Program-made: the position numbers and the translations under genes
Notes under the pieces: model-generated
Told to the model about the DNA's origin: nothing
The model's database searches: none
What the model saw: the letters and a program-made list of their open reading frames with translations, nothing else
Part shown: positions 21,246 to 60,241 of the stretch, one piece after another
Layout of the letters: every line of letters starts with the position of its first letter
Numbering within the stretch: the first letter of the stretch is position 1
Assembly (NCBI GenBank): GCA_002293685.1
Contig: DBDS01000002.1
Coordinates: forward strand, 31,742 to 95,741
Length of the DNA stretch: 64,000 bases
Source of the DNA: Patescibacteria group bacterium UBA926
GTDB taxonomy: Bacteria; Patescibacteriota; Doudnabacteria; UBA920
Direction of reading: 5' to 3'

Positions 21246-21261
21246 GGCCTGTCACAAATCC

Positions 21262-21294
21262 GGGCAAAAGAAAAAGGACCACTTTCGCAGTCCT
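21262..21294 (-). terminator. rho-independent terminator after the 21317-21946 gene
   Basis: aggactgcgaaagtggtcct hairpin followed by ttttcttttg on the minus strand. Confidence 0.5.
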
Positions 21295-21316
21295 GTTTTG
21301 TAACCCTTTGAAGCCT

Positions 21317-21946
21317 TTACGACTTCTCTGGGTTAATATGTAGGTTTATGACACCGCTTTCACGCTTGTCACGTGCCGACACAGACGAATATTCATCGTC
21401 ATCATCTCTGATGCCCAAAGGGTCACCGAGTTTAGAAGCATCAAACTCACCTTTATGTGAATCAGGTGCTTCTTCCTTTTCCGGCTCATCCCTGATCTCC
21501 CAATAAGCCTTCCCAAGTAGATACCCGCCTGGCAAGCCAATCATTCCTAGCAGGATAATGACGGCATACCACTGCTGTGACATTAACGGCATTGGCGTAT
21601 TCCACAAGCTGTAGCCGACCATAATACTCACCGAAATGAGAGCCGCCACGACCATGAGATACCATGCTACCTGAGCGAACCACAACAGGGACCGAGCCGA
21701 ATGATAGATCGCAGCCAGGGAAAGCAGTAACGCAGTCCCAACTGTACTGCTCAATAGGATGAAGTCCATCCTACGCCGGGTTGGCATATCCAAAAGGTAC
21801 ACCATCACCAGCATAAATGCTGCCACCCCAATGAAAAACACCATCGCATTTTTTAGGTTATACATAAACATTTCCTCCAAGAAATTTGATTTAAATAGTC
21901 GAAAAACTATTTGCGTAATAATACCACAAATAGTTCTTTTTGTCAA
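21317..21946 (-). CDS. hypothetical 4-TM membrane protein with acidic C-terminus. The true start is probably an internal Met near 21868.
   Basis: Four hydrophobic helices; a D/E-rich C-terminal tail. Confidence 0.5.
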   Translation of the reverse strand: MTKRTICGIITQIVFRLFKSNFLEEMFMYNLKNAMVFFIGVAAFMLVMVYLLDMPTRRRMDFILLSSTVGTALLLSLAAIYHSARSLLWFAQVAWYLMVVAALISVSIMVGYSLWNTPMPLMSQQWYAVIILLGMIGLPGGYLLGKAYWEIRDEPEKEEAPDSHKGEFDASKLGDPLGIRDDDDEYSSVSARDKRESGVINLHINPEKS

Positions 21947-21962
21947 TCAGGTTTTCGCTAGA

Positions 21963-24521
21963 CTACACCGACTTTTCAATACCACCAGGTCCTGCCGCCA
22001 TCATATCGGCAATCTGACTGGCTTCTAATATTTCTGCTTCGACTTCATTTCGAGGCCTACCAAATTTCAAACGAGATAACTGCCTAATAGCTTCGGCTGT
22101 TTGTCTCTGTTCAGCAGTTGCTTTGGGAAGTGGATAAGTTGCCATGTTAAACGGCTTGCTTGCTGTACCGTTAATCATTAATTTAACAAAAGCGTTGTAA
22201 CGGTCTACGTTAAGCAGATCGAACTCATTGAAAGTTGGCGCAAATTCTTTCGCCATAATTTCTGCATCTTCCACACCGATACGGAAACTGACCATACTTC
22301 CCGCATTTCCAAACACGGCGTCACGCAAATCACTACTCGCCGCACCGTGCGCACCCGCACCTTGTTGCAACTGTGCCAAAAATTGATGAGCGATAATTAA
22401 ATTAAGTTTGTATTTTCGCGCCTCGCTTAATATTGAAGAAAAAGCGTCCGTAATAAAGTTTTGAAATTCATCAACATACAAATAAAAGTCGCGGCGCTCG
22501 TCTTCAGGTTGATCGGCACGGCTTAACGCTGCCATCTGAATTTTAGACACAATAATCAAACCAAGTAGCTTAGCATTCATCTCCCCTACTTTACCTTTCG
22601 CTAAGTTCACAAGCAAGATTTTCCCACTGTCCATAACTTCTCTAAAATTGAAAGAACTCTTCGATTGACCGACAATATTTCTCATCATACTGTTCTCAAC
22701 GAAACGTCCAACTTTAGAAACCAAATAGCCAAGCATTTCAGATTTATGAAAATCAGAAGTCTTCGCCATTTCTTTTTCCCAGAATGCTTTAACAACAGGA
22801 TCATTAAGTTTTGAAACTTTGTACTTTTGAAATTCTGTGTCGGTGAAGATGCGAGGAATTTCTACTAAAGTTCCTGGATGTTGTTCATCTGCCATTAAAG
22901 TAAGCATGGCGTTGCGCATATTATGTTCGAACATTGGCCCGAGCATAGCCGGATCTGTCACTAACTTATAAAAGATAGAGATCATTTCTTGCACAGCGAA
23001 ATCTTTGTGCGAATCATGCGTAACTTCGAGCATATTCAAACCCATCGGACGTTCAGTGTCGAATGGATCGAACAAAATTACATCTTCCGCGCGGCTTTTT
23101 GGCACATGAGGAAGAACGTCTTCAATGAAGTCACCATGAGGATCGATAATACAAAGACCTTCTCCGTTCGCAATATCTTGCACGGCCATGTACTTCATCA
23201 CTTCAGTTTTACCTACACCAGTGCGTCCCAAAATATACATGTGGCGTCGCCTATCTTCGCGCGCCATATGCACTTTCGTTTCGATACCCCGATAAATATT
23301 TCTACCCAAAAGCAACCCTTCGGGAGCTAGATTAATTGGCGGAGGTGCTTTTTTCGATAATAGCCATTTGATGTTCGGCGTTTCGAGCAGCGGAGTTGGC
23401 AAGTGCCATAAACTAGTTAATTCTTCGGTGTTCAAAATCATCTTGCGACCATAACGTCTGTAAATTCTGAAGATATAGTCTTTGATAATTCGCTTTTTAT
23501 TGCGCTTCTTTATTCGGAAACCGTTAAAAGGCGGCATGTTATATTCCAAAAATGAAGAAGTTAAATTATGTAAATGGGCTTTCGCTGTGCCTGGTGTCTC
23601 GGAAGCTGTGATGATTCTAATATTAGTGAAGAATCCAGGACGACTAGCTTTTTCTTCAAAACGCTTCACCATTTCTTGCTGCATCGGGGTTAAATTAATC
23701 GCCGAGTAACGACCAGACAAATCATTGCGTTGCTGCATCTGTTCTTGAGAAGGCTTCATTCCTCCTACTACGCTGTCTTTTAAACCACCCCCGACTTCCT
23801 TAACAAACCGACCTGTTGCAGACTTCGCGACAATGTTTGGATTTTTTCCTTGTTGAATTTCCAACGCCATATGACGCGGCTTCATTTGCCAATGAACTCC
23901 TGCGGGGTATAAAATAACTTGAATTGCAGCGCCGTCTGTTTCGGACAATTTAGACATCGCGTTAGTAAGTGCATTCAAGGGATCGGTCTCCATATTCTTG
24001 TAAGTGCGGAATGGAAACATGTAGGGCTTGTTCAGTTGAAGCTCTACTGCTTCCATCTCGCCTTTTTTTGGAAATGGATTATAACCTTTGACTACTTCGA
24101 TAAACGCGTGCGGATATTGCGCTTGTATTTGCTTCTCAATTAAATCCTGAAGATGCTTGGGGCAATTGATATAAAAAGAAATTTTCTTGTTTGTGCAGGC
24201 GATTTCAAAACTAATATAATCCTTGGGCTGCCAAAACCAATTTTCGTGACTGATTCCCGACAAAGTTGTGTATAGTTGTTCACCCACGCCAATCATCTGC
24301 TTCTTTTCCTCATCCCTCATATCCCGAGAATTATCTTCACTATTTTCTTTTGGCATTTGAATTTCCAAAATTACCCAGTTCTTAGTGCGAGGTAAAATAA
24401 CCTTGCTGTAGTACCAGTGCCTGTGCGCGTAATAAGCTAGCAACGAAAAAAACACTACAAGTAGCACAATCAAAAGTAGTGTTGCGATAACTATCGTACT
24501 AATGTCTAATCCAAAAGGCAT
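21963..24521 (-). CDS. VirB4/TrbE/TraC-like FtsK-HerA superfamily ATPase (type IV secretion / conjugation-type)
   Basis: N-terminal TM helix, about 420-aa N-domain, Walker A LGRTGVGKT, IIDPHGD, Walker B LYVDEF and the RK...AHQ arginine-finger/Q motif. Confidence 0.65.
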   Translation of the reverse strand: MPFGLDISTIVIATLLLIVLLVVFFSLLAYYAHRHWYYSKVILPRTKNWVILEIQMPKENSEDNSRDMRDEEKKQMIGVGEQLYTTLSGISHENWFWQPKDYISFEIACTNKKISFYINCPKHLQDLIEKQIQAQYPHAFIEVVKGYNPFPKKGEMEAVELQLNKPYMFPFRTYKNMETDPLNALTNAMSKLSETDGAAIQVILYPAGVHWQMKPRHMALEIQQGKNPNIVAKSATGRFVKEVGGGLKDSVVGGMKPSQEQMQQRNDLSGRYSAINLTPMQQEMVKRFEEKASRPGFFTNIRIITASETPGTAKAHLHNLTSSFLEYNMPPFNGFRIKKRNKKRIIKDYIFRIYRRYGRKMILNTEELTSLWHLPTPLLETPNIKWLLSKKAPPPINLAPEGLLLGRNIYRGIETKVHMAREDRRRHMYILGRTGVGKTEVMKYMAVQDIANGEGLCIIDPHGDFIEDVLPHVPKSRAEDVILFDPFDTERPMGLNMLEVTHDSHKDFAVQEMISIFYKLVTDPAMLGPMFEHNMRNAMLTLMADEQHPGTLVEIPRIFTDTEFQKYKVSKLNDPVVKAFWEKEMAKTSDFHKSEMLGYLVSKVGRFVENSMMRNIVGQSKSSFNFREVMDSGKILLVNLAKGKVGEMNAKLLGLIIVSKIQMAALSRADQPEDERRDFYLYVDEFQNFITDAFSSILSEARKYKLNLIIAHQFLAQLQQGAGAHGAASSDLRDAVFGNAGSMVSFRIGVEDAEIMAKEFAPTFNEFDLLNVDRYNAFVKLMINGTASKPFNMATYPLPKATAEQRQTAEAIRQLSRLKFGRPRNEVEAEILEASQIADMMAAGPGGIEKSV

Positions 24522-40856: not shown

Positions 40857-41249
40857 TTAAACCTTAAGTCGAATTAACTTACCTTTGCGTTTGACAATGT
40901 TTTTATAATCCCATTGGACTGTCTTTGATTCTTTCAACCAAAGTCTTAAATCCTTTAATTTGATTTCATCTGCTGAAGTGTAATTTTTTTGAGCAGCTTT
41001 AAAGCTTCCTTCTTTTTCTAGACCTTTGGCTTTAAAAGATTGCCCACTCCAGAATAATAATGTTACCCCAACTTTTCTTTTGGAATATCCAGCGACTGGA
41101 TTTCCTTCGATAAACCAAACTGGGCCGCCGTGCCAAAGTTTGCTTTCTGCTTTTTTGAGAGACTTATCGATTTCTTCGGCTAACTTTTTACTAATAGCTT
41201 TGTCTTCGCCTTTGAGCGCGTTGTTATATTTTTGAATGTCTTTGTGCAT
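40857..41249 (-). CDS. DUF1801 (YdhG/YdeI)-like protein
   Basis: Shape and motifs resemble DUF1801. The start is probably the internal Met (MHKDIQKY...), which avoids overlap with the upstream gene. Confidence 0.45.
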   Translation of the reverse strand: MHKDIQKYNNALKGEDKAISKKLAEEIDKSLKKAESKLWHGGPVWFIEGNPVAGYSKRKVGVTLLFWSGQSFKAKGLEKEGSFKAAQKNYTSADEIKLKDLRLWLKESKTVQWDYKNIVKRKGKLIRLKV

Positions 41250-41253
41250 AGAT

Positions 41254-41694
41254 TTAAATATCATCAAAGTTTGGTTTGATTTCTTCGTCGTCCATTGAGA
41301 CGCGCGGCGCTCCCAAACGACCATAATTTGGATCCATCACTTCTTCGCGCGGATCGTAATCAATTTCTTCAATGCGAGATGCTGCGGGATGAGACACAAA
41401 TAAATTCCGCGCTCTATCTTGAAGAATCTGGCCGATTGGCTCAGGCATTTTAATTGGCCCACCGATTGTCTCTAAATTACTCTCTCCCAAATCCATATTC
41501 TCACGGAGTTGAGCTTCAAGAATTTCGCGATTGATTTTTTCTCTATCAACTTCTTCGACCTGTGGTTTTTCGGAACCACTCATTTTTCGATACTCTGCCT
41601 CACCAAGAAAAACACCTTTCACTTCCCCTTCACCATTAACAATCACCACTTTCCCCTGCTGGCCTGCTAAATTGATTAAGTCTTTGAGATTCAT
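41254..41694 (-). CDS. hypothetical protein with Phd/YefM-like N-terminal fold and long acidic tail
   Basis: N-terminus LKDLINLAGQQGKVVIVNGEGEVKGVFLGEAEYRKM resembles antitoxin Phd/YefM. No partner toxin is evident. Confidence 0.4.
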   Translation of the reverse strand: MNLKDLINLAGQQGKVVIVNGEGEVKGVFLGEAEYRKMSGSEKPQVEEVDREKINREILEAQLRENMDLGESNLETIGGPIKMPEPIGQILQDRARNLFVSHPAASRIEEIDYDPREEVMDPNYGRLGAPRVSMDDEEIKPNFDDI

Positions 41695-41747
41695 AATCGC
41701 ATCTTAGCACAAAAAAACCACCTTTTAGAAGATGGTCTTATTATTTA

Positions 41748-42968
41748 TTACATTTTGAGCTCAAACACCCTAACGGTAAAGCTTCCATCAATCATCTCAG
41801 TTCCCACGCATCGGATGAATTTGGTCAAAGGTACTACTGCACAAGCTCGAAATTCTCCACCAAATTCGAATGACTCTCGCCATGTCGCGCCACCATTTTC
41901 AGAAACTATAATACCGCCACCCTGTTCACCAATAAATACAGCGTTACCACCAGATGCGTAAATCAAACCATTATCCACGGGCAAGACATGTCTAATTGGC
42001 CATTTGGGTTCAGCTAATCTCTGTCCCCAGGTTGCTCCACCATCTGTAGTTTTATATATCCAGCCCTGTGATTCTGGAAAGATCATTCCTCCAGCTACGA
42101 AGCCTGTATTGTTGTCCAAAAACTGAACCGATCCATCAAATATTGGGTCAATTGATTCACGACACGACCAACCAAAACCGTTATTATTGCTAGTACAAAA
42201 ATTTATCCCTGCTAAATGTGCAGTTGTACCAATAAAACTGGATTGATGACCAAACCAACCATCTTGGTTAGGGTGAGGTTCAACTCGACGCAACTCGCTC
42301 GAACCACGACCATAAAATACCGAAGGGACTCCATCCACCACACTCATAGCTGGGCTGATTACATTACTACCATTCCCTACCACATCCATTAGCCAATCTT
42401 CATTAGACAATATTGACTTAGGGTTCCAGATTATACCACCATCATAAGAGCTATAAATGAATCCCTGTGAGGCATCAGAAGCATTGCTATAACCAGAAAC
42501 CATTAAGTGATTTCCAGGACCGAGGTATAATCCTGAAAAGAATTCGGGTGGATTATTGGTAGCTGTCCAAGAAACAATCCATGTACGTCCTCCATCAAGA
42601 GTCCGGTAAATATTTTTCTCAGTCAATAAGTAACCTCTATTTTGATCAACGAATACTATTCTTTGCGCAAAATTATCGCTTATACTGCTAATTAATTCCC
42701 AATCATCTTCACCCTTCTCAATATCAAGAGCTGGTACTTGAACGGCTCTCAAAGCACTCAGGTCTCTAAAAGCAGAAGCCTTCTGACCACCAGCAACACT
42801 AGCTGGGAAGATGGCCGTCACCACTTCCTCATCACCACCTTTTTGCGAAGCTGAACTCAATAATCCTCGCAAAGTGCCATTCTCAGCCAAAATCATGGTT
42901 GATACTAATACCAACACTGCCACACCAGCCAGGATAAAGGGTGATTTATTTTGTCGTTTTTGTTTCAT
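41748..42968 (-). CDS. exported BNR/Asp-box repeat protein (Ycf48-like / sialidase-like beta-propeller)
   Basis: Signal peptide; repeated DGGRTW, DGGIIW, DGGATWG and NGGATW Asp-box motifs. Confidence 0.7.
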   Translation of the reverse strand: MKQKRQNKSPFILAGVAVLVLVSTMILAENGTLRGLLSSASQKGGDEEVVTAIFPASVAGGQKASAFRDLSALRAVQVPALDIEKGEDDWELISSISDNFAQRIVFVDQNRGYLLTEKNIYRTLDGGRTWIVSWTATNNPPEFFSGLYLGPGNHLMVSGYSNASDASQGFIYSSYDGGIIWNPKSILSNEDWLMDVVGNGSNVISPAMSVVDGVPSVFYGRGSSELRRVEPHPNQDGWFGHQSSFIGTTAHLAGINFCTSNNNGFGWSCRESIDPIFDGSVQFLDNNTGFVAGGMIFPESQGWIYKTTDGGATWGQRLAEPKWPIRHVLPVDNGLIYASGGNAVFIGEQGGGIIVSENGGATWRESFEFGGEFRACAVVPLTKFIRCVGTEMIDGSFTVRVFELKM

Positions 42969-43053
42969 AAATATTGCTCAATTAAGATAAGTATAACATA
43001 AAACCGCCCTTTCGAGCGGTTTTTTATTTAGGTCCAAGTTTACAAGCACAGAG

Positions 43054-43896
43054 TTATTTAGATTTTTTCTGTATAAAAGTAATCTGTTCTGAACCGTCTT
43101 TTCTATCTAATCGATATATTTCCAATAGACCGTTTTCTCTTATTTCCACTAACTCGCCGAAATTACTTGTCAGGTTAAAAACTTGTCCGTTTTCTGGTTT
43201 TGTAATTTTGGGAGGTGGAATTATACCATCCGTATGATCTATATATTTCGCCATCATATTTGTTAAATCTGTAACATCAGGGTCCTGCTGACGCTTGATT
43301 TGGGTTTGATCACTTTGCCATGTCATATATTTCATACAGCTGTCAGTGCCATCCTTATACCTATAATCCAAACCTGAAGACCATCCCATATATTGACAAA
43401 GTAGCTTATTTCTCCAAAAGACATTACCGAAAACTGATGTTTTATCAAAGAGCGCACCATCATTAAAGATGAAAAGTGCATCAGTGATGTGCCCAGAATC
43501 AGGGATATGGCCGTAAGTCCCTAAGGCTAACACACCATAATCGGGATCATTAATTGTACAAAAATTCATGTATCCAACATATATAAAACACTCTTCAGAC
43601 TCATCCCCTGGCACAATACTAAAATTTAAAGCTCCGTTACTTTCCCAATTAGCTATTGCTCTAGTAAAATGTATGTCCCAACCTCTGGAAGCGCTATCTA
43701 AAAGTGCAACCTGGCCATGAGCCCAATGCGGTGATGGTTCTTCATTGGCACTTGAGCTTAATGGTTGCGGTGCATAAGAACTGTAATAGCGAACGTAGAC
43801 TAAACCTGCGGCGGCAGTTATCACGAATAGAGCAAGTAATAAATTGATTCTGTGCTTGGAATTCCATTTTTTTAGGAACTTTGACATATTTTTCAT
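43054..43896 (-). CDS. hypothetical membrane-anchored protein
   Basis: N-terminal TM helix; no recognised motifs. Confidence 0.45.
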   Translation of the reverse strand: MKNMSKFLKKWNSKHRINLLLALFVITAAAGLVYVRYYSSYAPQPLSSSANEEPSPHWAHGQVALLDSASRGWDIHFTRAIANWESNGALNFSIVPGDESEECFIYVGYMNFCTINDPDYGVLALGTYGHIPDSGHITDALFIFNDGALFDKTSVFGNVFWRNKLLCQYMGWSSGLDYRYKDGTDSCMKYMTWQSDQTQIKRQQDPDVTDLTNMMAKYIDHTDGIIPPPKITKPENGQVFNLTSNFGELVEIRENGLLEIYRLDRKDGSEQITFIQKKSK

Positions 43897-49741: not shown

Positions 49742-52390
49742 TTAATCTCTCTGCCAATACAATACCAGACGACGGAGCACCTTAACAAGCTCTTCCCAGA
49801 TTAAGATTGAAGATGCGGCCGCAAGTGTGATTAACCATTCATTAAGAGTTAAATCTACAGTTCCTAAAATTTTCTGCATCGGTCCCCAGTGTACAGCCGC
49901 CCATTGCAATAATGCAACTGCAGCAATTGCTGCCCATAGCCATTTATTTGTGAATGCCTGACTGAACGCAGAACGAGTTTCGCTTCGACAATTAAAAGCA
50001 TTATACCACTGGTAAATTGCTAAAACTGTAAGAGAAATGGTTTGTGCTTTAGCAATATCGCCATCGCGATAAAAATCAAACAACCACAGAGTTCCGATTG
50101 CCATGATTAACGCTAGTGGAATCATTCTTAGCACCATGAATCTATCGATCATGTACTTGGCCGGTTTTCGGTAAGGCTCTCGGAGTAAATTTCCCTCTTT
50201 CGGTTCCGCGGCAAAAGCGATTGTTAAGAATCCATCAGTAACTAAGTTCAACCAAAGGATTTGCACGGCTGTAACTGGAAGCGGCCATGCCAACAACAAT
50301 GCACCGACAATTGTAAACAATTCACCGAAACTGGTAGAGGTCAAATATAGAATAGCGCGTTTAATAGTTTTATAAATGTTTCTCCCCTCTTCAACTGCGG
50401 CAGCAATAGTAGAAAAGTTATCATCGAGTAAAATAATATCTGCGGATTCTTTGGTTACTTCTGTACCGGTTTTACCCATCGCTATTCCTAAATCAGCAGC
50501 CACTAATGAAGGAACATCATTAACTCCATCCCCGGTCATTGCAGTAACTTTTCCTAACTCTTGATACCCCTGAACGATGCGAAGCTTATTGTCTGGTGTA
50601 ATGCGAGCAAATACCGAAGTTGTCGGAAGAACACCTAATAACTCATTTTTAGAAAGTTTCTCCATGTCTGCGCCCGTCAAAACTTGATCGCCTTCCTCAA
50701 AAATCCCCGCTTGCCTGGCGATTGCCTTGGCTGTTTCAGGCCAGTCTCCTGTTATCATAACAACTTTCATCCCTGCAGATTTCACATCAGCAACAGCACC
50801 AGGGACTTCTCGATGCAAAGTATCTTGCATGCCATACAAACCACCGAAGTGAAGCTTTGGAATTTTTTCAGGATCAACTGCACCCTCAACAGTAGCAAAT
50901 CCAAACGCGATGATACGCAAGCCCTCACCCGCCATTTCTGTCATCGCGTGCTCAAATTCATTATGATCACGGCCGGCCAAACTAGCCACTGCTTCTGGCG
51001 CACCAATCACGGCCAGAGTATGTTTGCCATTTTCTTCAAATACAACCGCACGATATTTTGTACGATAATCAAATGGAATTTCTTGGATCAATCGGTGGTT
51101 TACCAATATGGCCTTCTTTCCAAATCCTAATTTTTCGGCTAGTACTAGCATCGCAGCTTCAGTTGGATCGCCTTGAACAATCCAAGCTTTGGTTTTAGGG
51201 TCAAAAATTAGTTCTGCAGAAGCGAACGCAGCAAATTTTGCTGCAAGTAATAATTCGGCTGTGTGATCTGGCGCCACTACTTTTCCATGATAACTCGCCT
51301 CTCCCTTTGGCTCATAACCACGACCACTAATTTCAAAAGTTTTACCCGCTACAAAAACCTTTTTCACAACTAATTGATTGCGGGTAATAGTTCCCGTTTT
51401 ATCGACAGCGATTACATTCGCATGACCCAATGCTTCCACAGCTGCAAGTTTTTTCACCAAAGCTTTACGTTGACTCATTCGCCAAACACCATTCGCCAAA
51501 ATTAAAGTCATGATGATTGGCAGACCTGAAGGAATCAATGATACTGCTAAAGCAACAGAAGTTTTTACCATTACCAATAACTCAAGCCCAAGCCATAAAC
51601 CCAAACCAACAAATCCTACGCAGAAAATCGTTACAGCGATAACTATTATGCGAGATAGATAACGAACATTTTTCTGCAAAGGGATTTCTGTATCCAGACC
51701 CATCACCTTAACAGAGAGCTGGCCAATTTGAGTATTCACACCTGTAGCAGTCACAACAAAATTTGCATTACCAGAAACGATACTTGTTCCTTTAAAAACC
51801 ATGTTCAACTGATCTGCCGGATTCAATGTAGATAAACCTTTTTGTTCAGTGATTGGATCAATCGTTTTTGCAACCGCGTTTGATTCACCAGTTAATGAAG
51901 CTTCATCTACAGTCGCACCTACTACTTCGATTAATCTACCATCAGCCGGTATCCGACCACCTTCATGTAGAACAACGATATCACCGACGACTAACTCTTT
52001 ATCAGAAATCACTGTTTCTTTACCATCACGGACAACCAAAGCTTGAGTCTGAATGAAATTCTTTAAAGCTGCCAAAGTATTATTGGCGCGACCTTCTTGA
52101 ACTGTTCCGATTACAGCATTAAACAAGAGTACAATTGAAATCACAATACTGTCTGCAATATCTCCCAACAGCAAGACAATTACGCTGACGATCAACAAAA
52201 TGTAAACTAGAGGACTTTTAAATTGTGAAATAAAAACTTGAACAAGCGAAGGTTGCTTCGCTTCAGGTAAAGCATTAACTCCGTCCCGCTTCAAACGTAA
52301 AGAAGCCTCTTGTTCTGAGAGGCCGTTTATAGTTGTACCATGAGCTTCTAGTACTTCATCAATTGTTTTTTGATACCAGTTTTGTTTCAT
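49742..52390 (-). CDS. P-type (type IIA, SERCA/PacL-like) calcium-transporting ATPase
   Basis: DKTGTIT phosphorylation site; TGES, MITGD and GDGVNDVPSL motifs; 10 TM helices. Confidence 0.9.
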   Translation of the reverse strand: MKQNWYQKTIDEVLEAHGTTINGLSEQEASLRLKRDGVNALPEAKQPSLVQVFISQFKSPLVYILLIVSVIVLLLGDIADSIVISIVLLFNAVIGTVQEGRANNTLAALKNFIQTQALVVRDGKETVISDKELVVGDIVVLHEGGRIPADGRLIEVVGATVDEASLTGESNAVAKTIDPITEQKGLSTLNPADQLNMVFKGTSIVSGNANFVVTATGVNTQIGQLSVKVMGLDTEIPLQKNVRYLSRIIVIAVTIFCVGFVGLGLWLGLELLVMVKTSVALAVSLIPSGLPIIMTLILANGVWRMSQRKALVKKLAAVEALGHANVIAVDKTGTITRNQLVVKKVFVAGKTFEISGRGYEPKGEASYHGKVVAPDHTAELLLAAKFAAFASAELIFDPKTKAWIVQGDPTEAAMLVLAEKLGFGKKAILVNHRLIQEIPFDYRTKYRAVVFEENGKHTLAVIGAPEAVASLAGRDHNEFEHAMTEMAGEGLRIIAFGFATVEGAVDPEKIPKLHFGGLYGMQDTLHREVPGAVADVKSAGMKVVMITGDWPETAKAIARQAGIFEEGDQVLTGADMEKLSKNELLGVLPTTSVFARITPDNKLRIVQGYQELGKVTAMTGDGVNDVPSLVAADLGIAMGKTGTEVTKESADIILLDDNFSTIAAAVEEGRNIYKTIKRAILYLTSTSFGELFTIVGALLLAWPLPVTAVQILWLNLVTDGFLTIAFAAEPKEGNLLREPYRKPAKYMIDRFMVLRMIPLALIMAIGTLWLFDFYRDGDIAKAQTISLTVLAIYQWYNAFNCRSETRSAFSQAFTNKWLWAAIAAVALLQWAAVHWGPMQKILGTVDLTLNEWLITLAAASSILIWEELVKVLRRLVLYWQRD

Positions 52391-52440
52391 TTAGAGCACA
52401 ATCAATACCTGTTTGCTCAATTATAACGCAATTAACAGAT

Positions 52441-53304
52441 TTATTGAATTAAATCTTGAAAATTAAACTTAGATAAAAATATATACCAAAATAGTAACAA
52501 GCCGATTATTCCATTAATGTATGGGAACCACCAATACACGCGATGGATTACGGAAGGTTTTATTAATAATAGTAGGCTTGAAAGTGGGTAAACATATGCG
52601 AGGTAAGTTAGAATTGTGCCTGGAAAGTTCTGTGTGAATAAAATTGCAGTGATAACCCAAAGCACAGTACATAGAACTAACGACCATTTTTCCTTAAGTA
52701 GCACTGCCGTGGTTGTGAGATTTGCTTGCTTATCACTAGCAATATCAGGAACGGCGGAAAAGATATGCATCGAAGCTGTCCAGCTCCATGCTGCGATGAT
52801 TGCCCAAAGCGGTGGAAATTCACCGCTAAGCAGAGCATAGGCCACAAATCCAATTACTGCATAATGAACATTTGAAATTGCGTCGATAAAGGGCTTGGCC
52901 TTAAAACGGAATGGTAATGAACTGTATGCCCATGCTAAAAATAAAAAAATTAGAAATAGAATTGTCGCTTTTATATTCGGAGTTAAAATTGCCAATACAA
53001 TTCCTAGTACTAAAGAGCCATAAACTAAGCTTTGCAGCCAGGAACGTTCTGTGTTTTGCAAGCGATGTTCTTTATCGTCTTTTTTAGAATTGAACTCGTC
53101 GGTGTCGCCGTCGAACATATCATTGATTCCATAAATAAAAATATTTGCAGGAATCATGAAATAAATTAGCAACAACAAAACCAGAGGCGATGCTAATTGG
53201 CTAAGTTCGCTCGCACCAGCAATCGCTCCAACCCAAAACGTCCCACCCGCGTACAGCCAAAATCTTGGTCTGGAAATTTTAATTAGGGTTTTTAATTTGT
53301 TCAT
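52441..53304 (-). CDS. UbiA-family prenyltransferase (candidate carotenoid elongase or other membrane prenyltransferase)
   Basis: NDMFDGDTD Asp-rich motif in a multi-TM protein, adjacent to polyprenyl synthase/crtB/crtI. Confidence 0.7.
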   Translation of the reverse strand: MNKLKTLIKISRPRFWLYAGGTFWVGAIAGASELSQLASPLVLLLLIYFMIPANIFIYGINDMFDGDTDEFNSKKDDKEHRLQNTERSWLQSLVYGSLVLGIVLAILTPNIKATILFLIFLFLAWAYSSLPFRFKAKPFIDAISNVHYAVIGFVAYALLSGEFPPLWAIIAAWSWTASMHIFSAVPDIASDKQANLTTTAVLLKEKWSLVLCTVLWVITAILFTQNFPGTILTYLAYVYPLSSLLLLIKPSVIHRVYWWFPYINGIIGLLLFWYIFLSKFNFQDLIQ

Positions 53305-54362
53305 TATTTTTCCCTTGAAACAAGGTATACAGTTAAATCAATTAGTCCTTGTTTTGATAATTTTGAAAATGGGAGTTTATCAATATCTTTGATAACAATT
53401 TTTTGATGCTTAGCTATTTCTTTATTAGCCAGTTCTTCAATTTTGTATTTATGTAGAAGGTCCATAATCTTTACTTGCTGCTCGTCTGAAATAATAGCTT
53501 GTCCATTATATAACTTTTTTAATAAGGCAGTGTCAGCGGCCGAGCATTTTTTAAGCAACTCAAAGTAAAGCCAAGTTTGTTTTTTCTCGCGAATATCACC
53601 ACCGACTGATTTTCCTGTTTTTGTAGAATTTCCAAACACACCCAAACAGTCATCCTTGAGTTGAAAAATTACTCCTAGACTTTTAGCTAGCTGGTAAACA
53701 AGTTTTTCTGTTTTGTTATCTAGCTTGTTCTGCAAAATCAATCCAGCCAACAGTGGTAATGCAAATGTGTAACGGCCAGTCTTTTGCTCATAAATACGCA
53801 AAATTGCTTCTTTATTGATATAGCCTTTATTAGTCGAACTGTTCACGTCGTCCATCTGCGCTAAACCAAGTACAGTCATTTCTGAACTGAATAAATTAAT
53901 TAGTTTCGGAGTGACTTTTGAATTTTTCAATTCTGCAAATTGATTGATCGCTAAAAAATAAGCAACAATTGCCACACAACTAGCCATGCTTTCACCGTAA
54001 TGCAAGCTTTCATTTCTATCACGTGAGTCTAGTAATTTTTGATATTGAGCATGGACTGTTGGAATACCGCGTCGCTTTTGATCGCGATCCATAATATCAT
54101 CATGAACTAATATTCCTGTGTGCATGATCTCGAGCATAGCACCCATTTTCACAGCATCAGCTAACTGGTTTTTAGTTTTTGGTTCCGCTGCAAACACAAC
54201 CAACAATCCGCGAATCAACTTTCCCGCCAAAGCAAACTCTTCCAAACGCTCAAGTGCATCTTTACTCCAAATATGCGATGACTTGGAAAAAGTCTTGGCT
54301 TTACTAACCATGCTTTTGATTTCTTTTTCTAAATGTATTCGATTACTATAAAAATTTTTCAT
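53304..54362 (-). CDS. polyprenyl diphosphate synthase (CrtE/IdsA-like trans-isoprenyl diphosphate synthase)
   Basis: First and second Asp-rich motifs HDDIMD and KDDCLG. Confidence 0.85.
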   Translation of the reverse strand: MKNFYSNRIHLEKEIKSMVSKAKTFSKSSHIWSKDALERLEEFALAGKLIRGLLVVFAAEPKTKNQLADAVKMGAMLEIMHTGILVHDDIMDRDQKRRGIPTVHAQYQKLLDSRDRNESLHYGESMASCVAIVAYFLAINQFAELKNSKVTPKLINLFSSEMTVLGLAQMDDVNSSTNKGYINKEAILRIYEQKTGRYTFALPLLAGLILQNKLDNKTEKLVYQLAKSLGVIFQLKDDCLGVFGNSTKTGKSVGGDIREKKQTWLYFELLKKCSAADTALLKKLYNGQAIISDEQQVKIMDLLHKYKIEELANKEIAKHQKIVIKDIDKLPFSKLSKQGLIDLTVYLVSREK

Positions 54363-54365
54363 AAA

Positions 54366-55181
54366 TTAAAATATACTTTTCACTAGACTTACTACGACTT
54401 CAGGTTTTGTTGGCTTCACTTTGGAATTGAATACCAACATTGGATTATCAGAAATCTTTCGGATAGTTGTGTCGAACATCAACGCCGCCGCTTCAACAGG
54501 AATTCGCAACCGCTTTGGAATGAACTTAAATCCTTGCTCAGCTTCTTTACGCCACACCCAGTATCGTTCGATCTCACTCTGAATAAATTTCTGAAATTGT
54601 TCTGACTTTGCATTTACTTCTTCAAAAGTTAAATTTTGCAAACCAAACTGCTTATAGTGATTGGCTGGTAAATAAGTTCGGGCAAATTTTTGATCTTCGT
54701 TGATATCACGAATCATGTTCATATACTGAAAAGCTTTCCCTAAAGCTTTGGCATATGGGTATGACTCGGGCGCGAGCTTCATTATCTTCGCCATCATCAG
54801 TCCAATTACTTCAGCTGACCCGTAGATGTAATCCAAAGTTTCCGAGAGTTCATTATAATCATGTTTAGTAATATCCTGCTCCATCGACTTGAAAAACGCA
54901 TCAATCCAAGGTTGTTCGAACTGGCGTTGGTTTTGTAATTCTACAAATCGCATCACAATGGAATTATCGACTACCCCACCTTTAACAGCTTTGTAGTATT
55001 CAGACTTCAAATTATAGTATTCCGCAGTCTGCTGAGGAACCGAATCAATAAAATCATCGAACACTCTCACGAAAGCGTATAAATCAAACACGTCTTCCTG
55101 AATTTTTTTCGGGAAAAATAAACTAGCGGTGAAAAAAGTCACGCTACCGTTTTTGAATATTTTGTAAGATAACTTATCCAT
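54366..55181 (-). CDS. crtB: phytoene/squalene synthase family (CrtB/CrtM-like)
   Basis: YAFVRVFDDFID and the MIRDINEDQKFARTYLP region. The start is probably the internal MDKLSY, which keeps overlap with crtI small. Confidence 0.8.
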   Translation of the reverse strand: MDKLSYKIFKNGSVTFFTASLFFPKKIQEDVFDLYAFVRVFDDFIDSVPQQTAEYYNLKSEYYKAVKGGVVDNSIVMRFVELQNQRQFEQPWIDAFFKSMEQDITKHDYNELSETLDYIYGSAEVIGLMMAKIMKLAPESYPYAKALGKAFQYMNMIRDINEDQKFARTYLPANHYKQFGLQNLTFEEVNAKSEQFQKFIQSEIERYWVWRKEAEQGFKFIPKRLRIPVEAAALMFDTTIRKISDNPMLVFNSKVKPTKPEVVVSLVKSIF

Positions 55182-56652
55182 TTTGCTCCTTCCCAATTTT
55201 CTCAGAAACAATCTGCCCTGAGATTACAACCATCGGTACACCCACGCCAGGCTGAGTATGATGACCAACATAATACAGATTACTAAGCTTTTTACTTCTC
55301 ATACGTGGTCGAAAATAAGCTGTTTGCCATAACGTATGAGCCAAGCCCAAGCCTGTACCACGAAAAGCATTATAATCACCAGAAAAATCTTTAAGACTGA
55401 AAACTCTCTCCACTACAATGTTTTCCTTAAACTTCTGTCCTGTGATTTTCTCCAAACGGTCGTAGAGATTATTTTTTAATCGCTCGTGTACTTCAGGAGT
55501 ATCATCCAAACCAGATGCGATTGGTGCTAAGAAAAACAAATTTTCACTTCCCTCAGGTGCTACAGAATCATCTGTTTGAGATGGTGTGCAAAGATAAAAG
55601 GAAGGTTGGTCTGGCCAAGCAGGTTTATTAAATATGGTATTGAAATGTTCAGTCCAATCTTTGTCTAAAAATAAAGTATGATGCAACAAACCAGACAATT
55701 TCTTATTTACGCCAACATACACAATGAAAGCTGACGGGGCAACAACTCGTTTATTCCACCAACGTGGAGAGTAGTCGCGATATTGTTTTTCTAATAAAGT
55801 TTGGTCTACAAAATGATAGTCAGCGTTAGCAACAACAAGATCGGCTTCGAAGTCCCCGCTAGAAGTTTTCACTTTTCGGATTTGGTTTTTTTCATATTCA
55901 AAGCCGGTTACAGTTTGTTCAAATTCAAACTTAACACCTTGCTCTTCGGCAAGTTTTTGAAACGCGCTTGCCACCGCACCAAACCCACCCTGTGGATACC
56001 AAACACCTAGATTTAAATCAGCGTGGTTAATCACCGAGTACAAAGCAGGTGTATTGTCCGGTGCGCCGCCTAAAAAGACCATACTGTACTCAAGTAATTT
56101 TCTAAGACGTTCGTTTTTAAAATATCGTTTCGTGAATGAAGATAATTTTTCGAAGACGTGAAGCTTACGGCCTTCGGTTATCATTCGCTTTGTAAAGAAA
56201 TCAAAAATCGAATTGAAGTCTTTATAAATAAACTCCTTCATCGAAACTTCATACTGATATTCTGCCTGGGCTAAATATTCGCGGAGCTTTTCTCCTGCTC
56301 CAGTTTCAATTGATTCAAAGAGTTTATACGTCTCTTCAACATCCGACGGCATGTCTACTTTATCACTTTCTCCAAAGTAAGCGCGATAAGAAGGACTAAG
56401 TCTTTTCAAAGAATAATAGTCACTCGGTTTTTTGCCAAACAATGAAAAATAGCGCTCGTAGATTTCAGGCATCATGTACCAAGACGGACCCATATCAAAA
56501 CTAAAGCCGCGCTCTTGCCAAACCCGAGCACGTCCACCAACCATATTATGTTTTTCCAGTACTGTAACCTGATGTCCGTCTTTCGCCAACAATGCCGCTG
56601 CTGACAGCCCTCCAAAACCTGCTCCGATTACAACGATTTTTTTCGTTGTCAT
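55174..56652 (-). CDS. crtI: phytoene desaturase family (CrtI/CrtN-like)
   Basis: N-terminal FAD fold IVVIGAGFGGLSAAALLAKDG. The start is the ATG at 56650-56652 (MTTKKIVV...). Confidence 0.85.
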   Translation of the reverse strand: MTTKKIVVIGAGFGGLSAAALLAKDGHQVTVLEKHNMVGGRARVWQERGFSFDMGPSWYMMPEIYERYFSLFGKKPSDYYSLKRLSPSYRAYFGESDKVDMPSDVEETYKLFESIETGAGEKLREYLAQAEYQYEVSMKEFIYKDFNSIFDFFTKRMITEGRKLHVFEKLSSFTKRYFKNERLRKLLEYSMVFLGGAPDNTPALYSVINHADLNLGVWYPQGGFGAVASAFQKLAEEQGVKFEFEQTVTGFEYEKNQIRKVKTSSGDFEADLVVANADYHFVDQTLLEKQYRDYSPRWWNKRVVAPSAFIVYVGVNKKLSGLLHHTLFLDKDWTEHFNTIFNKPAWPDQPSFYLCTPSQTDDSVAPEGSENLFFLAPIASGLDDTPEVHERLKNNLYDRLEKITGQKFKENIVVERVFSLKDFSGDYNAFRGTGLGLAHTLWQTAYFRPRMRSKKLSNLYYVGHHTQPGVGVPMVVISGQIVSEKIGKEQNG

Positions 56653-57752
56653 TAAGTCAAATAATTTTGCACCAGATACCAAGCTAGCAGGAACAGTGCT
56701 CCCCACCAGCCAAAGAATGAAATTCCAAAACTTAGGGCTATCTTGTTTCGCATTCCAACAGAAAGAGGTTCTGAAATACGTCCTTCCCGTTCTTGCGCCA
56801 ATAGTTTTGGACTAATATAAAAAGTAAGAAACAACCCATTCGCTATTAATAATAGCAATAAAATAGCTTGGTAGAAAGCCACGCCATTCAGCCAACTTTC
56901 GCGGTAAGTTATGGCAGCGCCAATCAATAATAACAATAATCCTAACCAGATCAATGGCTTTGTTACTTTATGCGCGCGGATAGTACTCTCAGTCCAATAA
57001 GATGAATGGCGTCCTAAAAAGCCATGAACATCTATTACTGTTACAGCACCAAGCCCAACCACAAAACCTGCCATGAACAAAAATAACCCAATAATGTCTA
57101 GCCAAGGAATTTTTTGGCCATCAAATATTCCTAATTTAATTTTACCCACATCACCGAGCAATCCAGTAACGCTTGTATTTGAAAAATCTTCTACTGTACC
57201 AACACCAATAACATAATCCCCTATCTGCGAGTTAGGTTCATAAACAATTATAAAGTAATTTTGTTTAGCTTCAACAGTTATTTCTTTTTTATCACCAACC
57301 CAATATCTTTCAAAACTAAATGGTTCATACCAAAATCCATTTTCGTGATTGTTGGATAACTTAATACCACCATAACCTTCAGGAATAGCTATGGGTAAAA
57401 TCTCCATGTCTACTGAATTTTCATCAGAAATATTCCGAGCAATTAAATAAATATCTGGCTTAAATTGACTATTTCTCGGAGAAACAGGGACGAGAATCTC
57501 TAATGGAATAGTCGCATCCTGCTCAGGTACGAATACATAGGAATCTAATTCGCCCACGGTTGATAATTGGCCATACACTGCTTGTGAAGAAGATGTAGGG
57601 TCAGAGATCTGAGTTGATCCCAAAAATATCCCATCAGCGACAGAGCTAAAACTAGACTCTGTTTCTAAAAATGGTTGATGAGCAAAAACGATCAGAGGTG
57701 AAAACAAAAATACAACTGCCGATAATATAGTTAACTTCGATTTAATTTCCAT
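56652..57752 (-). CDS. hypothetical signal-peptide protein with about 200-aa extracytoplasmic domain and C-terminal 3-4 TM helices, translationally coupled to crtI
   Basis: Its stop overlaps the crtI start. Signal peptide LTILSAVVFLFSPLIVFA; hydrophobic C-terminal third. Confidence 0.5.
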   Translation of the reverse strand: MEIKSKLTILSAVVFLFSPLIVFAHQPFLETESSFSSVADGIFLGSTQISDPTSSSQAVYGQLSTVGELDSYVFVPEQDATIPLEILVPVSPRNSQFKPDIYLIARNISDENSVDMEILPIAIPEGYGGIKLSNNHENGFWYEPFSFERYWVGDKKEITVEAKQNYFIIVYEPNSQIGDYVIGVGTVEDFSNTSVTGLLGDVGKIKLGIFDGQKIPWLDIIGLFLFMAGFVVGLGAVTVIDVHGFLGRHSSYWTESTIRAHKVTKPLIWLGLLLLLIGAAITYRESWLNGVAFYQAILLLLLIANGLFLTFYISPKLLAQEREGRISEPLSVGMRNKIALSFGISFFGWWGALFLLAWYLVQNYLT

Positions 57753-58201
57753 ATTTCTTTCGTTAGTTTAGTTGCGATTCCTACCCAAATTACATATGGG
57801 ATTAATAATAATGCTGGTAATAAATAAATTGGCCAGATAATGATTATCGCAATCACAGTAGTAATATTTAGATAAATCATGCGCTTATACGCTTTGCTAA
57901 AATTATGTTCAACAAAAAATACTTTGTTCCAGTTTGCATTTAAATAAGCGTTTAGCAAAAGCACAACAGCTAATATATAGTGCCAAACTCCAGGAATTGT
58001 AACAATCCAAAACAACATAACTGCCACAGTCACTAAAATATACAAAAATATCCAAATTTCTTTAATTAATTTTCCACTTGGAGTCCAGCTTGGCTTGTGT
58101 AAACCACTATACCAAGTCTTTAAACCAACTTTGGTATAACCGACTCCTATGTAAGCAGTAAAAGCTACGATTAAAGGAATAATTATAGAACTAATTTTCA
58201 T
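57731..58201 (-). CDS. tspO: TspO/MBR (CrtK) tryptophan-rich sensory protein
   Basis: WYSGLHKPSWTPSG motif and five TM helices. Confidence 0.85.
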   Translation of the reverse strand: MKISSIIIPLIVAFTAYIGVGYTKVGLKTWYSGLHKPSWTPSGKLIKEIWIFLYILVTVAVMLFWIVTIPGVWHYILAVVLLLNAYLNANWNKVFFVEHNFSKAYKRMIYLNITTVIAIIIIWPIYLLPALLLIPYVIWVGIATKLTKEIWKLNRS

Positions 58202-58826
58202 ACGATTGATAGTTAATTTCTTCGTAAAATTTTATGTCACGATCAGTACACCACTGTTTAATCATACTATAAAATGGTCCGCCAAATTTCAAAAATCCGT
58301 CATGAACCGGAATTACTACTTTTGCACTACTGGCTGCAACAAAATCCATCGTTTCACTTATTTTAGACCAAGGCGCTACAATCGGCAAAAGTAAAATTTC
58401 GGCTGGTTTTGGTAAAACTGTGAGACTATCCCCTGGATACCACAACTTTTGATTTACTAAATAGCCCGTGTTTGAAATAGTTGGAATACTTGAATGAATC
58501 ACAGCGTGATCTTTACCAAACGCTTCTACTAATAAATTATCTAATTCAAAACTTTGGCCTTGTTCGACAATCTCAATTTTAAAATTTAGATTAGAAATTT
58601 CTGCAGCAACTTCGGAATTGCATACAATCTTTACTCCAGGGCTATTATGAGCTAGTAAACTTAAATTTTCTACATTTAAATGGTCGAAGTGTTTATGTGT
58701 AATCGCAACAATGTCTACATGAGGCAGTTGTTCTGGTAACTCCGAAAACGCACCAGGATCAAACATTAAAGCCAATCCATGCTCTTCGACTAACACACAA
58801 GAATGTCCGTACTTTGTTATTTTCAT
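58191..58826 (-). CDS. MBL-fold metallo-hydrolase
   Basis: HKHFDH HxHxDH motif. Confidence 0.8.
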   Translation of the reverse strand: MKITKYGHSCVLVEEHGLALMFDPGAFSELPEQLPHVDIVAITHKHFDHLNVENLSLLAHNSPGVKIVCNSEVAAEISNLNFKIEIVEQGQSFELDNLLVEAFGKDHAVIHSSIPTISNTGYLVNQKLWYPGDSLTVLPKPAEILLLPIVAPWSKISETMDFVAASSAKVVIPVHDGFLKFGGPFYSMIKQWCTDRDIKFYEEINYQSYEN

Positions 58827-58845
58827 TAAAAGTAATACTCATTTA

Positions 58846-59304
58846 CTATTCTATAAACTCAATTTTATGGGATGTGAAAGTATTACCCACTTCGGTATCA
58901 AAAGCAAAGTATGCTTTAAATTTTTTGCCTTCTAACACATGTGGCAGCCAAACAGCATCATCAGACCACATCTCTGCATAAGGAATTTCATGATGGGCAA
59001 ACCATTGAGGTTTCATTTCTTCCGATTCCACTGGCTCACCATCAACTTCGTTAGTAGTGAAAATGTGACACATTAAATGATTATCGTCCACGAATGTGAA
59101 TTCAATCTCACCTTTATACTCTAAAGATTTTGCGACTAATCCACTTTCTTCTTGAAGCTCACGCATTGCTGCTTGCTCTAAGGTTTCACCCTCTTCAACT
59201 TTTCCACCGAAGCCATTCCATCGCCCACTTCCAAAACCACGTTTCTTGTAACCAAGTAAGACTTTCTCGTCATCATGAACAAAAACTAATGTGACTATTT
59301 TCAT
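58846..59304 (-). CDS. NUDIX hydrolase
   Basis: Nudix box GGKVEEGETLEQAAMRELQEESGL. Confidence 0.85.
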   Translation of the reverse strand: MKIVTLVFVHDDEKVLLGYKKRGFGSGRWNGFGGKVEEGETLEQAAMRELQEESGLVAKSLEYKGEIEFTFVDDNHLMCHIFTTNEVDGEPVESEEMKPQWFAHHEIPYAEMWSDDAVWLPHVLEGKKFKAYFAFDTEVGNTFTSHKIEFIE

Positions 59305-59808
59305 TTAAAACCTTTCTGCTATTTGCCCCACAACAATTCCCACCAAGATTGCTATACCTCCCATTAAAAAAGTGAATAGACCATCTCGCCAAACTTTACT
59401 GCGGAACATTTTTGCACTAACTGCGCCAAGCAAGAACAATGCAACCAACGTAAGAATTACTGAAGCAATTACCGCATTAGTGTTCGTAGAATAGAAATAT
59501 GGTGACAACGGAATGAACCCAGCTGCTATATAAGACAGTAACATTATGACTCCGCCTTTGAATGGTTTTGAGTAAGAAGTATTTTCTCCTGTCTCATAAG
59601 TTTCAACTGAGCGTTCTGAAATCAAACTTCCAACAGCCATTGAAAAAGCTTCAACAAAAATTAAAACTAACCCGGTGATAATAATACTTTTTTGATCTAG
59701 GCCAGCCACAGCGATACCTGCCAATAACCCAACAGTCGAAACCAAACTATCTTCTACACCGAAAGTGAAGTTACGAATAAAAATTGTGTAATCTTTTTTT
59801 ATACTCAT
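59305..59808 (-). CDS. VIT1/CCC1-family metal transporter
   Basis: VIT1-like TM pattern. The start is probably the internal MSIKKDYTI. Confidence 0.7.
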   Translation of the reverse strand: MSIKKDYTIFIRNFTFGVEDSLVSTVGLLAGIAVAGLDQKSIIITGLVLIFVEAFSMAVGSLISERSVETYETGENTSYSKPFKGGVIMLLSYIAAGFIPLSPYFYSTNTNAVIASVILTLVALFLLGAVSAKMFRSKVWRDGLFTFLMGGIAILVGIVVGQIAERF

Positions 59809-59809
59809 T

Positions 59810-60241
59810 TTATTTTCCAGTGCTCCCAAAACCACCATCACCACGATGAGTTTCTTCTAGTTCATCTACGAATTCTGGCTCTGGAGTAATAATTGCTTCA
59901 ATTATAAGTTGTGCCACCCTATCGCCTTTGTTCACAGAAAAGTCTTTGTCGGTGTGATTGGATAAAAGAATTAATATTTCCCCGCGATAATCCGCATCAA
60001 TTACACCGGCTAATGTATCAATTCCAAATTTCACAGCCAGACCTGAACGTGGTGCAATTCGCCCGTAATAATTTTCTGGGATTGCTGTAGAAATTCCCGT
60101 ACTCACCGAGGCAAAGCCACGGGCGGGTATAGTTTGCTCCTCTGAAGCATACAAATCCAAGCCAGCAGCCAAACCACTACCTCTTGTGGGTAATATGGCT
60201 TGTTCGTTCAATTTTTTAAAGGCTAACTTGGGAATACTCAT
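59810..60241 (-). CDS. dut: dUTP diphosphatase
   Basis: dUTPase motifs [16 protein letters not shown] and GGFGSTG. Confidence 0.9.

Follow-up and report, generated by a model that had tools for sequence, protein, structure and literature searches.

The genome of Patescibacteria group bacterium UBA926, a member of the Doudnabacteria, raises the question of what carotenoid-type genes packed against tspO may do in a bacterium of the candidate phyla radiation (CPR), since such bacteria, in the prevailing view, have few lipid and cofactor pathways of their own and rely on hosts. We analyzed a 64-kb stretch of this genome (contig DBDS01000002.1, positions 31,742 to 95,741; "the window" hereafter, with positions counted from its first letter), in which a UbiA-family prenyltransferase, a polyprenyl synthase, a phytoene synthase-type enzyme, a CrtI-family desaturase, a 366-amino-acid (aa) envelope protein and TspO are encoded side by side; comparison loci are numbered, as in L009 and L092. 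The locus probably combines two modules, namely a minimal C50-carotenoid cassette and a separate module consisting of an MBL-fold protein, TspO and a protein with four transmembrane helices (4TM). We are highly confident that the four genes at 52441-56652 constitute a carotenoid cassette, and a C45/C50 carotenoid of the bacterioruberin series is its likely product.

A preliminary description of this DNA had listed six genes of such domain content, tightly packed or overlapping, and both statements were borne out. Six open reading frames (ORFs) were located between 52441 and 58201, all on the minus strand, and each except that of the 366-aa protein gave strong family matches. Reading of the junctions revealed overlaps of 1-22 nt and a single 3-nt gap. 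The tspO gene overlaps the MBL gene by 11 nt and that of the 366-aa protein by 22 nt; the stop codon of the latter overlaps the desaturase ATG at 56652 by 1 nt (TAATG); the synthase ATG at 55181 overlaps the end of the desaturase gene by 8 nt; the gap separates the synthase from the prenyl synthase; and the prenyl synthase/UbiA junction is another 1-nt overlap (TAATG). The longest ORF of the desaturase, from a GTG at 56706, comprises 510 aa, and its start is most likely the ATG at 56652, called so on several contigs. For the synthase, the preceding Shine-Dalgarno sequence GGAAGGAG and the gene calls on other contigs make ATG 55181 the most likely start.

The exact sequence of the 366-aa protein was present on at least 23 contigs (ENA, JGI, NCBI and Logan), and the gene order was identical wherever a contig reached, in six listed places from six samples. 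Since the order is also kept in a related genome (L009/L018), at 45-69% amino-acid identity, a chance pattern of ORFs is excluded. Misbinning is unlikely as well, given that the cluster is contiguous with chromosomal-type genes (ParB, dUTPase, the str operon and ribosomal-protein genes). The exact protein is deposited as HAG27272.1 under the label 'Patescibacteria group bacterium', and the label Candidatus Doudnabacteria is attached to homologues that share 82% and 64% identity with it.

The desaturase passed the NCBIfam equivalog NF058655 ('CrtID, bifunctional phytoene desaturase/3,4-desaturase') by scoring 704.6 bits (cutoff 640) over the whole model (positions 1-478 of 478), and its GxGxxG FAD-binding motif is kept. 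As a positive control, the desaturase of a Halobaculum limi cluster (L090; order desaturase, UbiA, Caroten_synth/CruF and a divergent crtB) scored 768 bits. The negative controls, a plain CrtI from Arthrobacter and the CrtI of a cyclase-containing Patescibacteria cluster (L091), reached 453 and 636 bits, respectively. The window enzyme is 45% identical to this Halobaculum limi desaturase, which occupies the crtD position of a crtD-lye-cruF cluster. The CrtID family name traces to work on Haloarcula japonica, where knockout and complementation assigned both CrtI and CrtD activity to each of C0507 and D1086 (Yatsunami et al. 2024, PMC11946383); for the term 'CrtID' itself, nothing relevant was found in the literature. 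At 45% identity to the Halobaculum enzyme, we predict that the desaturase of the window is a phytoene desaturase with additional 3,4-desaturase activity; the demonstration of both activities is confined to C0507 and D1086.

The UbiA protein scored 291 bits on NF009516 (cutoff 205), and 125 and 102 bits on two sister models, the lower value belonging to the CrtEb-type model NF009608, whose cutoff of 217 was not passed. Halobaculum Lye reached 442 bits on NF009516, while Arthrobacter CrtEb reached 469 bits on NF009608 and 134 on NF009516. As NF009516 was passed, NF009608 failed and the controls sorted accordingly, UbiA is of the Lye rather than the CrtEb type. The CrtEb-type control came from the plasmid NZ_AP024649.1 of Arthrobacter sp. 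StoSoilB13 (L094, 280890-293507), a 1-Mb replicon with a full crtE-crtB-crtI-crtYe-crtYf-crtEb-type cluster; this crt region is without annotation in the PLSDB gene table. UbiA and Halobaculum Lye are 42% identical, and both Asp-rich motifs, NDxxDxxxD and DIxxD (DxxxD), are intact, with INDMFDGDTD and VPDIASDKQA aligning with their counterparts in Halobaculum Lye. Several UbiA homologues have been named 'lycopene elongase/hydratase (dihydrobisanhydrobacterioruberin-forming)' by JGI. The gene is clustered with that of the CrtID-type desaturase, but without CruF in the window or in any CPR locus fetched. We predict a lycopene elongase/hydratase of the Lye/LyeJ type; thus, of the roles considered for this protein, that of a C45/C50 elongase stood, whereas those of a quinone or glycosyl enzyme did not.

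Membership of the synthase in the SQS_PSY superfamily is certain (PF00494), and both Asp-rich motifs are visible in its translation. Its best NCBIfam scores were 103 bits for CrtB (cutoff 500), 100 for HpnD and 96 for HpnC, all below the cutoffs, and its best solved relatives in the PDB, an Enterococcus 'phytoene synthase' and CrtM, scored 59 and 50 bits. The prenyl synthase likewise stayed below every NCBIfam equivalog cutoff, with f2_encap_cargo4 as its best profile, followed by GFPPS_Mycobact and GGPP_syn; an identical profile of hits was obtained with the crtE-position gene of the Arthrobacter crtE-B-I-Ye-Yf-Eb cluster. Its top solved match in the PDB is a farnesyl diphosphate (FPP) synthase. 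By the classical chain-length rule, the lack of an aromatic residue at positions -4 and -5 of the first Asp-rich motif implies a product of at least C20. Here, this motif reads DDIMD, and neither the Gly at -5 nor the Ile at -4 is an aromatic blocker; a product of C20 or longer would follow. The chain-length check proposed in the preliminary description hence gave a lower bound, and no equivalog cutoff was passed. From their context, the two enzymes would be a CrtB-like phytoene synthase with a C40 product and a short-chain trans-prenyl diphosphate synthase making geranylgeranyl diphosphate (GGPP), similar to CrtE/IdsA.

Taken together, a desaturase that passes the CrtID equivalog and a UbiA of the Lye type point to a C40-derived product elongated to C45/C50, rather than to the C30 (CrtM/CrtN) or plain C40 acyclic carotenoid put forward earlier. 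In the pathway that we propose, whose order follows the haloarchaeal one reportedly described by Yang and colleagues in 2015 and taken up in PMC11946383, the prenyl synthase would make GGPP, the SQS_PSY enzyme would join two GGPP into phytoene, and the CrtID-type flavoenzyme would desaturate phytoene to lycopene. The Lye-type UbiA would then add a C5 unit at C-2 and hydrate the 1,2 bond at one end, giving a C45 hydroxy intermediate into which CrtID would place a 3,4 double bond. Elongation and hydration of the other end by UbiA would lead to C50, and a further action of CrtID would yield bisanhydrobacterioruberin. Such an acyclic hydroxylated C45/C50 carotenoid (diol) reaches from one side of the bilayer to the other and would lend stiffness or protection to the membrane of an ultra-small cell. 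Gene content, family membership, intact motifs, synteny and the relocation of the cassette were observed, and from these we infer the enzymatic steps, the chain length, the end product and any physiological role.

To arrive at bacterioruberin, two further hydrations by CruF would be required. No match to the Halobaculum CruF, to a heterodimer-type lycopene cyclase or to a cluster-linked family 2 glycosyltransferase (GT2) was obtained by tblastn in the window, and CruF (PF04240) was found in none of the CPR loci fetched. Pfam scans of the other larger ORFs of the window that were tested revealed no carotenoid-modifying enzymes. The lack of a lycopene cyclase noted earlier was thereby confirmed for the 64 kb. 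With no CruF in the window, and provided that the rest of the genome has none, a bisanhydrobacterioruberin-like compound is the most likely end product.

Several points weigh against this assignment. Identity to the characterised-type haloarchaeal enzymes is only 42-45%, and the activities given for the CPR enzymes are predictions. Since neither the synthase nor the prenyl synthase reaches an equivalog cutoff, C40 and GGPP are assigned from context. NF009516 also accepts the UbiA of L091 (276 bits), which comes from a Patescibacteria cluster with a lycopene-cyclase domain, and the model may be unable to separate hydrating from non-hydrating elongases. Finally, in view of the tight TAATG overlap between the gene of the 366-aa protein and crtID, the two modules may be linked in function.

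TspO matched PF03073 with 70.7 bits (cutoff 24) over profile positions 5-144 of 145, and the representative of its cluster, a close homologue, is labelled by NCBI 'tryptophan-rich sensory protein [Candidatus Doudnabacteria bacterium]'. The AF2 model of the adjacent 366-aa protein (pLDDT 82) shows four long transmembrane helices (domain ~215-363) that are preceded by a signal peptide, a beta-sandwich at residues ~25-190 and an amphipathic helix. In Foldseek searches of the PDB, the sandwich matched the ColG collagen-binding domain 4hpk_B (E = 1.9e-5, target TM score 0.75) and the PPC domain 5sv5 (E = 7e-4), both at the level of fold, with 12-16% identity; the model thus suggests that the N-terminal domain is a secreted PPC/collagen-binding-domain-like beta-sandwich. 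The transmembrane part gave no significant Foldseek match against the PDB, and a sequence search of PDB chains with the 4TM profile returned just designed helical bundles and CP47, with non-significant scores. Neither the 366-aa protein nor the 4TM members had a meaningful Pfam match, and NCBIfam gave none for the former. A signal-peptide cleavage is predicted at VFA|HQP (residues 24-27), in which case the mature ectodomain would begin with His, a residue kept in most, not all, full-length members. The Cu-binding CorA is a weaker Foldseek match of the sandwich, which raises the idea of a possible N-terminal metal site.

In a scan of one genome per GTDB species, 475 relatives of the 366-aa protein were found. 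About a dozen of the best 80 are full-length, and the rest of these 80 are stand-alone proteins of ~147-165 aa that match residues ~215-363 only; among all 475 as well, a separate protein of ~150 aa is the prevailing form. The relatives span many CPR classes, Nitrospirota, Thermodesulfovibrionales, deltaproteobacteria and others. Across phyla, the 4TM domains (L021-L089) are 53-61% identical to that of the window (56655-57143), with a mean column identity of 52%. Of the alignment columns, 40 do not vary, and they comprise two His, several Trp, Lys/Arg and an S-P pair; H244, W253 and H261 of the 366-aa protein are among these residues, and GLGAVTVIDxHGFLGR and THKVTKPLIW are signature motifs. 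In a representative library, the family comprised 989 clusters at E <= 1e-3. As candidate identities for the 366-aa protein, a CruF-like hydratase was rejected (no Pfam match; BLASTP against Halobaculum CruF, E = 5), as was a cyclase-like enzyme (no BLAST or Pfam similarity).

Gene neighbourhoods were counted at 78 loci whose flanks were long enough. TspO was encoded directly upstream of the 4TM gene on the same strand, often overlapping it, at ~25 of the 78 loci, which belong to several CPR classes and one Aminicenantes. Within 3 kb, tspO was present at ~31 loci, the further ~6 including a deltaproteobacterium. It was the sole widely recurring neighbour, no other family being common to more than 9 of the 78. 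The order MBL-TspO-4TM is kept in L009, L010, L012, L013, L014 and L018, and crt genes adjoin the 4TM gene in just one of the 80 fetched loci (L018, on the same contig as L009). Downstream of 4TM, L011 is free of crt genes for 10 kb and L014 for ~5 kb. The MBL-fold protein, TspO and the 4TM protein would thus form a separately conserved envelope module (56652-58826), to which the 366-aa protein appears to belong, rather than being a carotenoid enzyme. The two modules are co-oriented and probably co-transcribed. We attribute the translational coupling of the 366-aa protein gene to crtID to the place where the cassette landed.

The position of the cassette in relatives agrees with this view. In the window, the genes run MBL-TspO-366-aa protein-[cassette]-ATPase-cupin-M50-S12-S7-EF-G-(two other genes)-...-EF-Tu. 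The sister genome covered by L092 and L012, overlapping stretches of one contig, has instead MBL-TspO-366-aa protein homologue-ATPase-cupin-...-S12-S7-EF-G-[cassette-GT2]-...-EF-Tu; its cassette lies ~9.5 kb off, between EF-G and EF-Tu, and TspO-4TM abuts the ATPase. These orders imply that the cassette has moved relative to a conserved backbone. In L011-L014, which lack the cassette at this site, the ATPase directly follows the 4TM gene; in the window, the two are separated by the four crt genes, so that the ATPase marks the insertion point. The juxtaposition of cassette and TspO is lineage-specific, the crt genes having probably been inserted between the 4TM gene and the ATPase. The preliminary description had grouped TspO and the 366-aa protein with the carotenoid genes, a grouping that the comparative loci do not sustain.

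The gap between EF-G and EF-Tu appears to be a variable slot, which in L092 holds the crt cassette and GT2 at the equivalent place. In the window, this gap (40857-43896) contains a 280-aa ORF without Pfam match and a 406-aa protein with weak BNR/Ycf48-like matches, and the ORF at 41254-41694 is 55% identical to a 148-aa ORF that follows GT2 in L092. Cassette homologues occur in many relatives at 45-87% identity. The order desaturase-synthase-GGPP synthase-UbiA is kept in L009/L018 (at the same site as in the window), in L092 (6661-11561, followed by the GT2 glycosyltransferase) and in a Woesebacteria-labelled contig (L093, 2599-10329) together with TetR, a second desaturase, GT2 and SDR. In L091 (8001-11948), the same four genes are arranged differently, are spread over both strands and are joined by a gene with a lycopene-cyclase domain. 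This accessory variety in L091, L092 and L093 suggests a diversified repertoire of C50 or glycosylated carotenoids in CPR.

That all six genes serve one pathway, with TspO and the 366-aa protein, for example, standing in for CruF, binding or exporting carotenoids or regulating in the manner of CrtK, we regard as unlikely, although the 1-nt and 22-nt overlaps described above and the six-gene order kept in L009/L018 speak for it. So does the location of Rhodobacter tspO (crtK) in the crt region, where it down-regulates carotenoid genes (PMC4237140). Against it stand the occurrence of the 4TM domain in 475 species genomes with crt genes adjacent at 1 of 80 fetched loci, the distant cassette of the sister genome, the crt-free stretches downstream of 4TM in L011 and L014, and the lack of similarity of the 366-aa protein to CruF or to any Pfam family. 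Equally doubtful is the proposal that TspO and 4TM form a two-component envelope device widespread in CPR, whose Doudnabacteria version, with its PPC-like ectodomain, would be co-transcribed with the cassette, perhaps since it binds, positions or exchanges, at the cell surface, the membrane-spanning carotenoid or else a tetrapyrrole or lipid that comes from a host. An apparent TspO-4TM fusion (P0335, 300 aa) is a singleton on one 3.8-kb Logan contig. By the positive-inside rule, its TspO part ends in the cytoplasm and its 4TM domain begins outside, so the halves are topologically inconsistent. With a frameshift or assembly artefact also possible, P0335 was set aside as Rosetta-stone evidence.

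For the cassette itself, a cyclic (decaprenoxanthin- or sarcinaxanthin-like) or glycosylated C50 product would need a CrtEb-like elongase and cyclase or glycosyltransferase genes elsewhere. The lycopene-cyclase domain gene of L091 and the GT2 genes of L092 and L093, each added to the same four genes, are in keeping with such a product; the higher score of UbiA on the Lye-type than on the CrtEb-type model and the lack of cyclase and GT2 homologues within the window make it quite improbable. A C30 pathway, in which CrtM would convert FPP to dehydrosqualene ahead of CrtN, or a squalene/hopanoid-type pathway (HpnCDE), could draw on the near-equal CrtB, HpnD and HpnC scores of the synthase, on CrtM and the Enterococcus enzyme as its best solved relatives and on the FPP synthase matched by the prenyl synthase. 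We nevertheless consider these pathways very improbable, as the desaturase passes a C40 equivalog and reaches just 49 bits on the HpnE model, lycopene is the substrate of the Lye family, neither -4 nor -5 of the prenyl synthase is aromatic, and no squalene-hopene cyclase was found in the window; nor did Santana-Molina et al. find this cyclase in CPR (PMC7306690). A placing of the enzymes with squalene or quinone pathways, named earlier as what would speak against a carotenoid cluster, is thus not supported. There is similarly little chance that the cassette is a decaying, non-functional remnant of horizontal transfer that makes nothing. The GC content is somewhat lower over the crt/TspO/MBL/Nudix stretch (36-39% at 52001-60000, vs. 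about 40-43% in most of the window) and the cassette moves between genomic sites, as such a remnant might, but the four ORFs are full-length with intact motifs, the cluster is identical in the listed contigs from several independent samples, and its conservation extends to many relatives. A C50-carotenoid cassette beside a separate MBL-TspO-4TM module remains the reading that we prefer.

Among known systems, the haloarchaeal crtD(C0507)-lyeJ-cruF cluster with crtB (Haloarcula japonica, Halobacterium salinarum and Halobaculum limi L090) passes the same NCBIfam models, at 45% and 42% identity, has a clustered phytoene synthase and can use one desaturase as both CrtI and CrtD (PMC11946383). It differs from the window in having CruF (PF04240), so that the last two hydrations are not encoded in the window; moreover, here the GGPP synthase lies inside the cassette, the order desaturase-synthase-GGPP synthase-elongase is different, and the host is a CPR bacterium with a genome of roughly the 0.85-Mb class. 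Within the same superphylum, Haro-Moreno et al. (2023, PMC9948471) described lyeJ, crtD and cruF in Lake Baikal Patescibacteria and suggested that bacterioruberin serves to adapt the membranes of these very small cells. Pigment pathways in reduced, host-dependent bacteria, called unexpected in the preliminary description, therefore have a precedent. In the Lake Baikal data, which include cruF, the genes are scattered over separate reads or lie at a distance from one another, whereas the Doudnabacteria cassette is compact and overlapping, includes crtB and the GGPP synthase and has no cruF in the window.

Actinobacterial C50 clusters (crtE-crtB-crtI-crtYe-crtYf-crtEb in Corynebacterium glutamicum and Arthrobacter L094) also unite GGPP synthase, synthase, desaturase and UbiA elongase in one operon, and their GGPP synthase is of the same type by NCBIfam profile. 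Unlike them, the window has a Lye-type (NF009516) instead of a CrtEb-type (NF009608) elongase, a CrtID-type desaturase (705 bits, vs. 453 for Arthrobacter CrtI) and no CrtYe/Yf subunits. Rhodobacter tspO (crtK), in the crt/photosynthesis cluster, adjoins carotenoid genes as in the window. Here, by contrast, the gene context is not one of photosynthesis or tetrapyrroles, TspO comes coupled with a 4TM partner and an MBL-fold gene, and the TspO-crt adjacency is not kept in sister genomes. What is new is a compact, overlapping cassette, complete from GGPP, in Doudnabacteria, with a single CrtID-type desaturase and no cruF found in the window; the type of pathway was known before.

If this reading is correct, some CPR bacteria build their own membrane reinforcement or photoprotection through a compact, mobile C50 cassette, and a four-gene 'minimal' C50 pathway would be of biotechnological interest. 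Given the 2023 precedent in Patescibacteria (PMC9948471), the partner family of TspO is a fresher lead than the carotenoid cassette. Very conserved, absent from Pfam and genetically coupled to TspO, the 4TM family offers a concrete experimental handle. The function of bacterial TspO is still debated; a literature search found nothing on TspO in Patescibacteria or on a conserved 4TM partner. Should the two-component device exist, bacterial TspO would gain its first defined partner and ligand context.

Table 1. Genes of the carotenoid cassette and the adjoining module, with flanking backbone genes, by position in the 64-kb window.
Feature	Position	Strand	Match	Length (aa)	Remark
P-type cation ATPase	49742-52390	-	Pfam E1-E2 ATPase domains		backbone gene
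UbiA	52441-53304	-	PF01040, 2.6e-21	287	
Polyprenyl synthase	53304-54362	-	PF00348, 1.1e-48	352	
SQS_PSY phytoene synthase	54366-55181	-	PF00494, 1.3e-46	271	refined start; ORF 54366-55211
CrtI-family desaturase	55174-56652	-	TIGR02734, 488 bits	492	refined start; ORF 55174-56706
Envelope protein	56652-57752	-	no Pfam or NCBIfam match	366	
TspO	57731-58201	-	PF03073, 1.4e-19		
MBL-fold protein (Lactamase_B_3)	58191-58826	-	PF13483, 2.7e-21		backbone gene preceding TspO

The cluster is part of a long co-directional array, nearly all real genes of the window being on the minus strand, and a scan found promoter-like and terminator-like sites around it only at chance level. The other genes of the window are typical of CPR: a glycolysis/pentose-phosphate block, HtrA, DnaX, SecY, ribosomal-protein operons, EF-G/EF-Tu, BacA/PAP2 and one tRNA-Leu. 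Within the compact glycolysis/pentose-phosphate block (1472-9139), transketolase is split into two ORFs, the N-terminal part at 6417-7268 and the C-terminal part at 5243-6253. The region at 16836-24521 comprises a 1144-aa ORF without Pfam match and, downstream, an 852-aa homologue of TrwB/VirD4-like coupling proteins, with small unannotated ORFs between them; these genes could encode a type-IV-like surface apparatus of CPR.

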